Source: an uncultured Bacilli bacterium
Lineage (GTDB): Bacteria; Bacillota_I; Bacilli_A; RF39; UBA660
Assembly (NCBI GenBank): GCA_944359015.1
Contig: CALVSK010000003.1
Coordinates: forward strand, 1-47,165
Length of the DNA: 47,165 nt
Reading direction: 5' to 3'
Shown here: positions 2,747-39,095 of the stretch, piece after piece
Numbering within the stretch: the first letter of the stretch is position 1
How the letters are laid out: every line of letters begins with the position of its first letter
Notes under the pieces: model-generated
What the model was told of the DNA's origin: nothing
The model's database searches: none
The model's input: only the letters and a program-made list of their open reading frames with translations
Program-made: the position numbers and the translations under genes

Positions 2747-5269
2747 TTAACTTTCCAACAATAATAACTTTTCTTTTTCTTCTTTTAAAGTTTTTCTTTC
2801 TTTTTCCACCAGTTCTTTCGGAGCTTTATTTACATAATTTTCATTTTTTAAAAGATTTTCTCTACGTATAATACTATTTTTCAAACTTTCTATTTGTTTT
2901 AATTTTAGTTCTTGATTTAAACTATTTTCTTTAATTTCATAATAAATTGACAAATCATAATCATTATATTTAATATTTATATTATTTTTATCAGAATCAT
3001 TTACAATATTTTCGTTAGATACTTTTAAAATTTTTAAAATTATACCATAATTCATATTATTATTGATTTTAATTTGAAAATCTTTACCTATTTTATTTTC
3101 TAATTTAATATTTCTAAATAATTTTATAAATTCAATTTTATTATCAACTTTTTCTAATTCTTTTTTAAAAACCATTGTTTTATCAAATAATGGATATTTA
3201 CTAATCATAATATTTTCTTCTTTTAATGGTAATAAAGAATATATTTCATCCGTAACATATGGCATAAAAGGATGTAATAATTTTAATACATCAGTTAATA
3301 CAATTAATAAAACTGACTTAGTAGTAGGACAATCTAAGCTAAATTTAGCAAATTCAATATAATTATCGCAAAAATCATTCCATATAAAACTATATAATTC
3401 TGTTCCAACATTATTAAATTCATAACGTTCCATAGCTTTTGTAACATTTTTTATTGTTAAGTTTAATTTTGTTAAAATCCATTTATCTTCTTCAGTTAAA
3501 TTTTCTATATTAAAATTAGATTTATTTAAATCTGCTATATTCATTAATACAAATCTAGATGCATTCCAAAGTTTATTAATAAAATTCCAAGTTGAAGCAA
3601 CTTTTTCTTCATCATAGCGTAAATCCATACCAGCAGCAGTAGAAGTACTTAAGAAAAATCTTAAAGCATCAGCTCCATATTTATCTATAACATCCATTGG
3701 GTCTACACCATTACCTAAAGATTTACTCATTTTTCTGCCTAATTTATCTCTAATTAAGCCATGGATTAAACAATCTTTAAAAGGCCTTTTATTAGTAAAA
3801 TGAAGTCCTTGAAAAGTCATCCTATTAACCCAAAAAGGAATAATATCATATCCAGTCACTAATACATTATTAGGATAAAACTTTTTCATATCTTCAGTAT
3901 CTTCTGGCCATCCCAAAGTCGAAAATGGCCACAAAGCACTGCTAAACCAAGTATCCAATACATCTGGGTCTTGTACCCAATCATCACCAGGTGAAGTTTC
4001 TCCTACAAATACTTCATCCCCTTTATACCAAGCTGGAATCCTATGTCCCCACCAAAGTTGTCTAGAAATACACCAATCATAAGTTATTTCCATCCAATGC
4101 TCCATTATTTTTTCAAATCTTTGAGGAACGAAATGAACCTTATTATCTTTATCTTTTTGATTTTCTAAAACTCTATCTGCTAAAGGACGCATTTTAACAA
4201 ACCATTGTTTAGATAGATAAGGCTCTATCATTACCCCACTTCTTTCACTATGGCCAACATTATGCTTTATTTTCTTTACTGCAACTAATAAATTTTCTTT
4301 TTCTAAATCTTTTACTAATTCTTCACGACACGCAAATCTATCTAAGCCCTTATATTTTAAAGCATTATCATTCATTGTTCCATCAGGATTTATAACAACT
4401 ATTCTTTCTAAATTATGTCTATTACCAACTTCAAAATCATTAGGGTCATGAGCGGGTGTAATTTTAACCACCCCAGTTCCAAAATCCATATCTGCATGTT
4501 CATCACCAATAATCGGAATTAATTTATTAACAATAGGTAATCTAACCATTTTACCAATCAATTTATTATAACGATTATCATTCGGATTTACAGCAACTGC
4601 TGTATCTCCAAACAAAGTTTCAGGTCTAGTAGTGGCAACTTCTAAATAATCATTTGAACCAGCAATAAAATATTTAATATGATAAAAAGCACCTTCAATT
4701 TCTTTATATATTACTTCTTCATTAGATAAAGCAGTCATTGCTACTGGGTCCCAATTAATTATTTTTTCTCCACGGTAAATTAAACCTTCTTCATATAATT
4801 TTTTAAATACATAAATAACGGCTTTATTCAGTCTTTCATCCAAAGTAAATCTTTCTTTTGAATAACATAATGATAAACCTAATTTCGCCCATTGCTTATG
4901 GATATTTTCAGCATATTCATCTTTCCAATCCCATGCATATTTCAACCATTCATCTCTAGATAAACTTCTTGGATTAATACCCATTTCTTTTAATTTAGCA
5001 TCAACCTTCGCTTGTGTAGCAATCCCAGCATGGTCCATTCCCGGCAACCACATAGCATTATACCCTTGCATTCTTTTAAAACGGATTATAATATCTTGAA
5101 GTGTTGTATCCCAAGCATGACCTAAATGCAATTTTCCAGTTACATTTGGTGGTGGTATAACAATTGCATAAGGTGGCAAACCATCTCTTTCTTCAAAATA
5201 ATTATTATTTAACCAATTTTCATATTTACCATCTTCAACTAATTTATGATTATACTTTTTATCTAACAT
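2747..5269 (-). CDS. valS: Valine--tRNA ligase
   Basis: [31 protein letters not shown]; start ATG 5269 after GGAGG. Confidence 0.98.
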
Positions 5270-5282
5270 TTTAATTCCTCCC

Positions 5283-5475
5283 AAAGAAAAAGGATAATAC
5301 CCAAGGAGCGCAAAAGCACGGTACCATCCTTTAAATTATCTTATCATGATTTTATAGCATCGCTGCTTTTGTTTTTCAGTTTACAACCTTCAAATAAATT
5401 TATTATTAGTTTCCATCAACCACTAACTTTCTTTAAATAAATATTATTTTACTCCTCAAACATCTTTAAAACACA
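5283..5475 (-). ncRNA. T-box riboswitch (Val)
   Basis: Stem I AGAAAG/GGTTGATGGAA apex, specifier region GTTGTA (Val codons, 5382-5387), T-box GGATGGTACCGTG, U-tract before the valS RBS. Confidence 0.9.
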
Positions 5476-5498
5476 TTTTTATTTTAACAAATTAAAAT

Positions 5499-6410
5499 TT
5501 ATATTTCAATAGTTTGATATAAATTGCCATTTATTAATATTTCAATACCCAAATCCGTAACATTAAAAGTTAAATTATCAAATGTTGCCAACTCAACGGT
5601 TTTAAGAACATTTTCAGAACAGTTTTCAAAAATATATAAATTACTTTGATTAACAACAAAAACATAATTTCCAACACAATATACATATTCTTTAGTTAAT
5701 GAACCTAAATATTCTTGTCCATTATAATCCATTATATGATATGCTGTATCATAAGTTATATAATAATTATCATTAAAATCTACAATTTCATTACTACTTA
5801 CTACAGAACGTGTATTAGTTTTATCTAAAATCAGCCACTCATTATCTTTTTTTGCTATCATTTTAGAAGTATTTAAAATAGAATTATTTAAATGTGCAGG
5901 AATTCCAATAAAATCATATTCTATAGGTATTTTTAATTCAACAGTTAATTCATTTACAGATAAAAGTCCCCATTTTTCATTATTTTCTACAATTAAAACT
6001 TGTTCACTATGATTAATATTATAATTTTTTACTGATGTATAACTACTTAAAAAATTACTAGTCATCATACTATAAATATTATTTAAATTATCTTTTTTAA
6101 TTATACCAAAGTTACTATTTAAAGTTGGCTCTAAAACTAAATCTCCATATTGATAATAATTAATATGATAATTTTCATCATCGATTGTAGTAGATACAAT
6201 TTCACAATCTGGGCAATCAAATACTGACAATAACTCATCATTTAAATAAAAGTATACTTTATCATTAAATAATATTTCATGATTAGGATTATCATCAATT
6301 AATTCTTTTTCATTACCTTCAGTTATTTTCTTATACGTTCCCAAGATGGAGCAAGGAAGAAAAATAGCAAGCAGAACAATAATTGTTATTAAAGTTTTTT
6401 TATCTTGCAT
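5499..6410 (-). CDS. Membrane-anchored hypothetical protein (beta-rich, WG-repeat-like)
   Basis: N-terminal hydrophobic anchor; KWGLL...IPIEYDFI WG-like repeat; GGAGG RBS. Confidence 0.7.
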   Translation of the reverse strand: MQDKKTLITIIVLLAIFLPCSILGTYKKITEGNEKELIDDNPNHEILFNDKVYFYLNDELLSVFDCPDCEIVSTTIDDENYHINYYQYGDLVLEPTLNSNFGIIKKDNLNNIYSMMTSNFLSSYTSVKNYNINHSEQVLIVENNEKWGLLSVNELTVELKIPIEYDFIGIPAHLNNSILNTSKMIAKKDNEWLILDKTNTRSVVSSNEIVDFNDNYYITYDTAYHIMDYNGQEYLGSLTKEYVYCVGNYVFVVNQSNLYIFENCSENVLKTVELATFDNLTFNVTDLGIEILINGNLYQTIEI

Positions 6411-27913: not shown

Positions 27914-28132
27914 AACAAAAAAAGGATAGTACCAAAAGGAGTGCTATTGCACGGTACCATCCCTTATTTTACTTATTTATCTTAACGCGATTAACGAAAT
28001 AACTTACTAATATTTCAGTTATTCAATTCCCAAGTGATATATATTTTTAATTTTATTATTCTTTTCCACCATTTTAGAACTCTCTTTAAATTTTTTAAAA
28101 ATATACTTGTCTTGTTCAAAATTTCTCCTAAT
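27914..28132 (-). ncRNA. T-box riboswitch (Ile)
   Basis: AGAGA/GGTGGAA stem I apex, specifier ATC at 28036-28038 followed by A, stem II with AGTA, CGTTAA IIA/B, T-box GGGATGGTACCGTG. Confidence 0.92.
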
Positions 28133-38904: not shown

Positions 38905-39095
38905 TAAAAAATAAAAAGAATGCTACCAAGGAGTGCATTTGCACGGTACCATCCTTTTTTTATCTTTTTTATCTTAACGCGATTAACGATTAATCTAGAA
39001 AAGTAGCATTAATTATTATTCTTATTAGTTTCCACCAACCACTAATTCTCTATTAAGTATTCATAATCAAATTCTTTTCTTAAAACAATTACAAA
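38905..39095 (-). ncRNA. T-box riboswitch (Ala), stem II apparently absent
   Basis: AGAGA/GGTTGGTGGAA apex, specifier GCT at 39005-39007 followed by A, CGTTAATCGCGTTAA IIA/B, T-box GGATGGTACCGTG. Confidence 0.9.

Follow-up and report, generated by a model that had tools for sequence, protein, structure and literature searches.

According to passages of two accounts of canonical T-box riboswitches (PMC7583486 and PMC10907184), the terminator takes its 5′ strand from the 3′ strands of helices A1 and A2, and the T-box sequence stays single-stranded. The leader of valS in an uncultured Bacilli bacterium raises the question of how a T-box could switch if its terminator arm pairs with the opposite side of the antiterminator, tRNA-binding bulge included. 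An earlier note on this DNA had claimed that the canonical strand rule is broken at this locus, and measured against the rule as worded in those passages, it is. The window, i.e., the whole stretch of DNA analyzed, comprises 47,165 nt, and valS, its leader and the two further T-boxes described in it lie on the reverse (−) strand.

The valS leader and its parts

The valine-tRNA ligase gene valS is an 840-aa open reading frame (2747..5269, AUG at 5269–5267) that matches the NCBIfam model NF004349 with 1090.8 bits (cut-off 704) and TIGR00422 with 1033.3 bits. A σ70-type promoter is predicted upstream of its leader (5481..5509) by a consensus scan, with 10 of 12 consensus matches plus the TG: the −35 element TTGAAA (5509–5504) is followed by a 17-nt spacer and the extended −10 element TGTTAAAAT (5489–5481; TAAAAT preceded by TG), and the UUUGUUAAAAUA block of the −10 region is kept in the leaders of relatives. 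The leader itself (5301..5467) matches the Rfam T-box model RF00230 over model positions 1–219 with 48.1 bits (E = 1.3e-9). This score lies below the gathering score of 93, which is why a default Rfam scan of the window lists only a tRNA.

Stem I (5379..5461) is aligned by cmscan with its base helix GUUUG/UAAAC, a specifier loop containing AGUA and GAA, and a distal AG-bulge/loop platform, the elbow platform, in which AGAAA and GGUUGAUGGAA align to AGAGA and GgUUGGUGaaA of the model. The distal hairpin is also predicted by RNAalifold, with compensatory changes, from 26 valS leaders. The specifier codon GUU (5385..5387), followed by the purine G5384, occupies the position expected from the consensus, within the 8 nt on the 3′ side of the specifier loop, and agrees with the amino acid of the downstream valS; GAAG-GUU-G/A is kept across the genus, and two relatives have GUA. 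The match to RF00230, the GUU specifier and the gene downstream bear out the assignment of the leader as a Val T-box in the earlier note.

Downstream of Stem I, a small hairpin, AGCA-GCGA-UGCU (5356..5367), aligns with the Stem IIA/F-box region of the model and not with Stem III, and its GCA/UGC stem is invariant in 25–26 of the 26 valS leaders. The 23 nt that separate it from A1 contain no hairpin. The antiterminator follows (5303..5331): A1 is formed by AAGGA (5331–5327) with UCCUU (5307–5303) and A2 by GUGC (5319–5316) with GCGC (5311–5308) around a UUUU loop, and the 7-nt bulge UGGUACC (5326–5320) lies between their 5′ strands, with UGGU adjoining A1. Its predicted energy of −8.0 kcal/mol and its covariation in relatives agree with the earlier description of a normal antiterminator. 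A GG spacer after the A1 3′ strand overlaps the terminator arm.

The sole tRNA-Val among the 26 tRNAs found in this genome, which is 90% complete, carries the anticodon UAC (C18:7524-7600), and its A73-CCA end matches the UGGU of the bulge, discriminator base included. Two positions of GUU pair with the UAC anticodon, and the third would be a U-U opposition or require a modified U34. T-boxes prefer C at the third specifier position; this preference is not kept in the AT-rich, Stem II-less valS leader. At the level of sequence, the valS leader is confirmed as a Val T-box riboswitch, predicted to sense tRNA.

Alternative folds and the proposed switch

The terminator arm GGUAUUAUCCUUU (5289..5301) can form 13 of 13 pairs with positions 5332–5320, i.e., with the A-tract and the A1 5′ strand (5332–5327) and with the entire T-box bulge. 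The pairs are consecutive, and two of them, G5325–U5296 and G5324–U5297, are G-U pairs placed centrally in an A-U rich helix. Base-by-base reading and RNAfold both support the claim that the arm complements this 5′ strand (5320..5332) and not the 3′ strand. The minimum free energy (MFE) structure of RNAfold (−20.7 kcal/mol, z = −2.11, with 7 of 200 shuffled sequences as stable) contains the same helix and retains A2 as a hairpin cap, as had been proposed, and the helix is also part of the RNAalifold consensus. The remaining U tract, UUCUUU (5283..5288), follows directly, and the Shine-Dalgarno sequence GGGAGG of valS (5277..5282) lies 7 nt upstream of the AUG. The leader thus has the layout of an intrinsic terminator, a 13+4-pair hairpin of −19.8 kcal/mol (helix plus A2) and then UUUUUCUUU, in which the last, paired UUU of the arm is counted. 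A simple terminator scan omits this hairpin because the scan allows only loops of 3–8 nt, and its omission is not counter-evidence. Assembled sequencing contigs from four studies, with mostly tentative RNA labels, contributed a few pieces of 51 to a few hundred bases (one of 4,382) at mostly low depth, and these show neither transcript starts nor ends. For comparison, the mean energies of T-boxes in TBDB, as given in the methods of the preprint, are −7.4 kcal/mol for the antiterminator and −19.5 kcal/mol for the terminator, and the two energies predicted at valS are ordinary by that standard.

No canonical terminator, composed of the A1/A2 3′ strands plus downstream sequence, was detected at valS: the antiterminator 3′ strand can form no more than 5 consecutive pairs downstream, and these are with the Shine-Dalgarno sequence. 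To assign pairing partners, we took all nucleotides from the end of the A1 3′ strand up to the U tract and summed their base-pair probabilities for each partner segment. In the valS leader, 11.9 of about 12.5 summed pairs fall on the A1 5′ strand and the bulge (hereafter bulge-pairing) and 0.0 on A2..A1 3′. The search for a more stable canonical terminator therefore leaves standing the statement that the T-box 5′ strand, UGGU included, is part of the sole terminator-like hairpin. In truncated transcripts, the antiterminator is the MFE structure until 7 arm bases have emerged, and the first contact of the arm is with the bulge.

At a single locus a helix of this length is not vanishingly rare. 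When the 33 nt downstream were dinucleotide-shuffled 20,000 times, a run of at least 13 pairs arose in 66 cases (P = 0.0033), a chance that is not negligible because a U-rich arm lies opposite a purine-rich strand, and the case therefore relies on relatives.

The valS leader is probably a working Val-specific, transcription-attenuating T-box with a rewired expression platform, as modeled from these folds. We infer termination by the hairpin, its block by tRNA and a toehold order of events as follows. While the polymerase advances, Stem I would catch tRNA-Val via the GUU specifier; the small antiterminator (A1, UGGUACC bulge and A2) would fold next, and the 13-nt arm would appear two bases later. 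Without uncharged tRNA, the free bulge would be the landing pad for the arm and the nucleation site of the terminator. Starting at the bulge and continuing along the A1 5′ strand, the arm would zip into a helix, expelling the short A1 3′ strand and leaving A2 as the cap, and the resulting 13+4-pair hairpin just 5′ of the U tract would stop transcription. With uncharged tRNA-Val present, the ACCA end would pair with UGGU and stack on A1, so that the landing pad would be taken; the arm would then be single-stranded, and the polymerase would continue into valS. The earlier note had the tRNA end and the arm compete for UGGU. Mutual exclusion follows, since both pair with the same bulge; that this exclusion operates the switch is the part that is conjectured.

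Conservation, distribution and rival explanations

The assembly (976 kb, 56 contigs) contains 11 T-box cores, counted as nine RF00230 matches, the valS leader and one core found by motif and antiterminator alone. Three of the nine matches reach the gathering score and two more T-boxes are unlisted; routine annotation would overlook most T-boxes of this lineage. By partner segment, 7 of the 11 are bulge-pairing, 3 pair with the 5′ flank of A1, and 1 is canonical-like, with pairing to A2..A1 3′. The bulge-pairing set includes the three T-boxes of the window, those of valS, ileS and the alaS operon. The T-box at 27934–28128 precedes ileS (TIGR00392, 945 bits), and that at 38926–39085 precedes a 180-aa open reading frame that matches no NCBIfam model; a short alaS of 593 aa (NF002436, 890 bits) comes next. 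With 76 and 57.5 bits, respectively, both T-boxes score below the gathering threshold.

The leader is present in 24 of 24 genomes of the same genus. Our script classed 21 of them as bulge-pairing, and the other three, one near the end of its locus (L016) and two duplicates of L029 (L031 and L032), show the arm on inspection. A wider set of 80 valS loci was picked by similarity of the ValRS protein, from genomes labeled uncultured Bacilli, 'Mycoplasma sp. CAG:611' or 'CAG:776', and uncultured Tenericutes. No T-box lies within 330 nt in 42 of these loci, and the remainder divide into 21 bulge-pairing, 12 canonical, 3 5′-flank and 2 unclassified leaders, i.e., bulge-pairing accounts for 21 of the 38 T-box-bearing loci. 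In a quick, midpoint-rooted ValRS tree the bulge-pairing label is clustered, yet at least five changes are required. Four other genera of the family differ in composition: 8/8 canonical; 6 canonical and 2 flank; 3 bulge-pairing and 4 flank; 1 bulge-pairing and 4 canonical.

As class-level controls we took the best T-box of each of 30 genomes, and 27 are canonical (21 by script, 2 with a nested insertion, 2 after correction of a misplaced U tract and 2 read directly), 1 is bulge-pairing (L148), 1 is of the flank type (L147) and 1 is ambiguous (L124). A pattern search matched 65 of 401 genomes, with T-box-like matches in four families and a similar rate for the reversed-pattern control; since chance inflates the raw 65, only T-box-like matches were counted and a subset was verified. 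A stricter pattern, which covers one sub-type, matched 6 of the 401 genomes and gave 0 control matches. In total, 13 bulge-pairing loci lie outside the home family (12 and L148), and RF00230 matched all 9 of those scanned, 4 of them above the gathering score with 97.8–107.9 bits. Beyond the home genus, the topology extends to additional genera of the same family and to three more families, all within the one class sampled. Within that scope, the predicted rewired terminator recurs across a group of small-genome gut bacteria. Both this lineage-wide spread and the missing Stem III go beyond the earlier note.

We examined covariation in an alignment of 63 distinct bulge-pairing T-boxes. The terminator helix is 91.3% paired, compared with 46–68% when the partner is slid by 1–3 columns, although the former value is partly circular because the sequences were chosen by predicted pairing. 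Columns (12,55) and (14,53) switch between A-U and G-C, with 28 AU, 24 GC and 7 GU in one column pair and 30 AU, 14 GC and 15 GU in the other, and the A1 3′ strand also covaries with the same two 5′ columns. In the antiterminator, 95.9% of cells are paired, and 6 of the 9 pairs have changed on both sides. Sequences in which the 5′ strand has AGG in place of GGA show matching changes in the A1 3′ strand as well as in the arm. One strand covarying with two alternative partners is, in sequence terms, the signature of a switch. De novo prediction by RNAalifold from the 26 valS leaders yields a terminator helix of 9 pairs, 2 of them with compensatory changes, again with some circularity as the leaders come from a pre-classified set. 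A U-rich tract lies 3′ of the arm in each of the relatives printed. The earlier expectation that relatives keep the pairing between arm and 5′ strand, with compensatory changes, is borne out, and conservation in relatives and paralogues raises the predicted helix above chance. The sequences, the two alternative folds with their energies, this conservation and the match of the bulge to A73-CCA are shown here by computation.

The arm bases that face the two bulge G's are the loosest of the helix, with 32 GU, 17 GC and 14 unpaired among the 63 sequences at one position, and the tRNA gives G-C pairs at the same two G's; the loose pairing may reflect tuning. The median gap between antiterminator and terminator energies is −10.7 kcal/mol for the 63 bulge-pairing and −11.4 kcal/mol for 69 canonical T-boxes from the same data, and this likeness argues that the set-point of the switch is preserved with the strands exchanged.

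Several features count against a working switch at valS: Stem III is absent, the Rfam score is low (48 versus 93), the z-score of the fold is only −2.1, the helix is rich in A-U with its two G-U pairs at the center, and the third base of the specifier is mismatched. The low score, the mismatch and the loss of both Stem II and Stem III, together with P = 0.0033 for the run at one locus, would also fit a decayed or simplified leader in which base composition produces the complementarity and which acts as a non-switching, leaky constitutive attenuator. We consider this unlikely. valS is essential, and a terminator of −19.8 kcal/mol ahead of it must be bypassed. Across species the leader retains its specifier, its platform, the UGGU/A73 match and a covarying antiterminator; the arm tracks changes of the 5′ strand, and the same design occurs in four families, in T-boxes that pass the gathering score (98–108 bits).

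It is distinctly improbable that the leader is a translational or dual-level T-box, in which the freed A1 3′ strand CUCCU hides the GGGAG of the Shine-Dalgarno sequence as in actinobacterial ileS and the long helix is incidental. The 5-pair CUCCU/GGGAG match exists, and the long helix leaves the A1 3′ strand without a partner. The pairing spans a 21-nt loop, however, and is not part of the MFE structure computed through the start codon, and the U tract right after the helix fits termination ahead of Shine-Dalgarno synthesis. CUCC complements any Shine-Dalgarno sequence, and relatives conserve the arm and U tract but differ in their Shine-Dalgarno sequences. The suggestion of the earlier note that the displaced CUCC pairs with the Shine-Dalgarno sequence finds no support on these grounds, i.e., 5 pairs, absence from the MFE structure and a target beyond the terminator, and the match carries little weight because any Shine-Dalgarno sequence would yield one. 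A missed canonical terminator or control element (further downstream, Rho- or protein-dependent, or a tertiary contact), with the long helix as a storage or stability structure, could be invoked given that the evidence is secondary-structure prediction alone and that our U-tract rule misplaced the terminator in 2 of the 30 controls (L125 and L139) before inspection, but we hold it to be very improbable as only 19 nt, Shine-Dalgarno sequence included, separate the U tract from the AUG, no complement of the 3′ strand longer than 5 pairs occurs there, and RNAalifold on 26 leaders shows no other 3′ helix.

Stem III, known systems and gene arrangement

Stem III is held to belong to the discriminator that senses tRNA charge. 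In the cmscan alignment of the valS leader the model positions of Stem II and Stem III are deleted, and between 5320 and 5367 the purine flanks AAGU..AAAUAAA are left. Stem III is likewise deleted in five paralogues (L003 and L006–L009), and a flank-type paralogue keeps it. For the stretch from the small upstream hairpin to A1, RNAalifold on the 26 valS leaders gives no hairpin. The median distance from F-box to bulge is 28 nt in bulge-pairing T-boxes (found in 52 of 63) and 40 nt in canonical ones (61 of 69). In one other family, Stem III is retained in the bulge-pairing T-boxes, and it is absent in two T-boxes classed as canonical (L037 and L070); loss of Stem III and bulge-pairing are loosely linked.

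A second unorthodox design is found at three loci of this genome, C1:13851(+), C8:23447(−) and C51:2638(−), and at L147, L093, L108 and L159. In this flank type, the partners of the arm are the linker and the 3′ half of Stem III, and the antiterminator is thereby extended coaxially below A1. The bulge is unpaired in both states, and the tRNA perhaps acts by holding Stem III.

Canonical class I T-boxes (B. subtilis tyrS and glyQS; RF00230) share with valS the Stem I, specifier, elbow platform, UGGN bulge and A1/A2, as well as an off state that consists of a much more stable hairpin and a U tract at similar energies. Unlike in these, the T-box sequence with its bulge is the terminator 5′ strand in valS and the A1 3′ strand is expelled, A2 is present in both states, and Stem III is missing. 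Reduced T-boxes of the glyQS type (no Stem II or IIA/B) resemble valS in the shortened leader and the missing Stem II. They retain a Stem III adjoining A1 and a canonical terminator, in part according to passages of PMC11404447, whereas valS keeps a IIA/F-box-like hairpin and has no Stem III. The translational ileS T-box of Mycobacterium tuberculosis, as described in passages of PMC10907184, is like valS in having a non-standard platform that works by strand invasion. It hides the Shine-Dalgarno sequence in a sequestrator made from the 3′ strand, whereas in valS the hairpin and U tract precede the Shine-Dalgarno sequence and the 5′ strand is reused. Stem Sa in the glyS T-box from Staphylococcus aureus (PMC9177973, in part) is, like the valS design, a lineage-specific change within the terminator/antiterminator domain; it is an insertion, and unlike in valS the strand logic is canonical.

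In the pbuE adenine 'ON' riboswitch and similar platforms, as in valS, a downstream strand invades a ligand-stabilized helix and the ligand blocks the invasion. The pbuE terminator reuses the 3′ part of the aptamer; unlike in pbuE, the invading strand of valS pairs with the very nucleotides that bind the end of the ligand.

A full-text literature search, with the main comparative studies beyond its scope, turned up no earlier account in which the terminator pairs with the bulge or the 5′ strand of the T-box, and none was found in the portion of Wels 2008 covered. TBDB, according to its description, seeks terminators only downstream of the discriminator, and the bulge-pairing design would therefore go unregistered. 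Together, the Rfam gathering score and the TBDB terminator search under-annotate such regulators in uncultured gut bacteria.

We give an even chance to the broader proposal of a previously unrecognized class of expression platform, 'bulge-capture' or toehold-occlusion. In this class, the tRNA end and the terminator strand would contend for the same UGGN, A2 would be a permanent cap, and the discriminator would be workable without Stem III; it would have arisen or spread repeatedly in reduced-genome gut bacteria, beside the second design that extends A1 via the 3′ half of Stem III. Among RNA-RNA riboswitches, T-boxes are the best understood. The mechanistic accounts examined assume that the A1/A2 3′ strands feed the terminator and that Stem III is part of the discriminator, and a widespread natural family appears to break both assumptions while keeping the usual energy balance, which offers a direct test of what the sensing of tRNA charge needs. 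If the proposal is true, the T-box switch is far more plastic than one textbook topology suggests, and charge can be sensed by a unit smaller than the minimum that structural studies imply. It would also put a simpler competitive-displacement design on offer for synthetic tRNA-responsive switches.

Some valS loci of relatives vary in ways of their own. In the valS leaders of three close relatives (L013, L051 and L056), the otherwise invariant ACC of the bulge is AAC (UGGUAAC), and the arm is re-matched as GGGCCAUCCUUU, giving G-C pairs with both bulge G's. In many relatives valS has no directly adjoining T-box, and a bulge-pairing T-box stands before another open reading frame that precedes valS. 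This distant T-box lies ~530–590 nt upstream of valS in L057, L060, L063, L065, L068, L069, L071, L078 and L087, and about 1,330 nt upstream in L066; the arrangement points to an operon in which valS comes second. In three genomes of the same genus (L023, L025 and L034), the homologous leader is followed by a protein that differs at its N-terminus (...SIDTPPPTVN) and may be an alternative type of ValRS.
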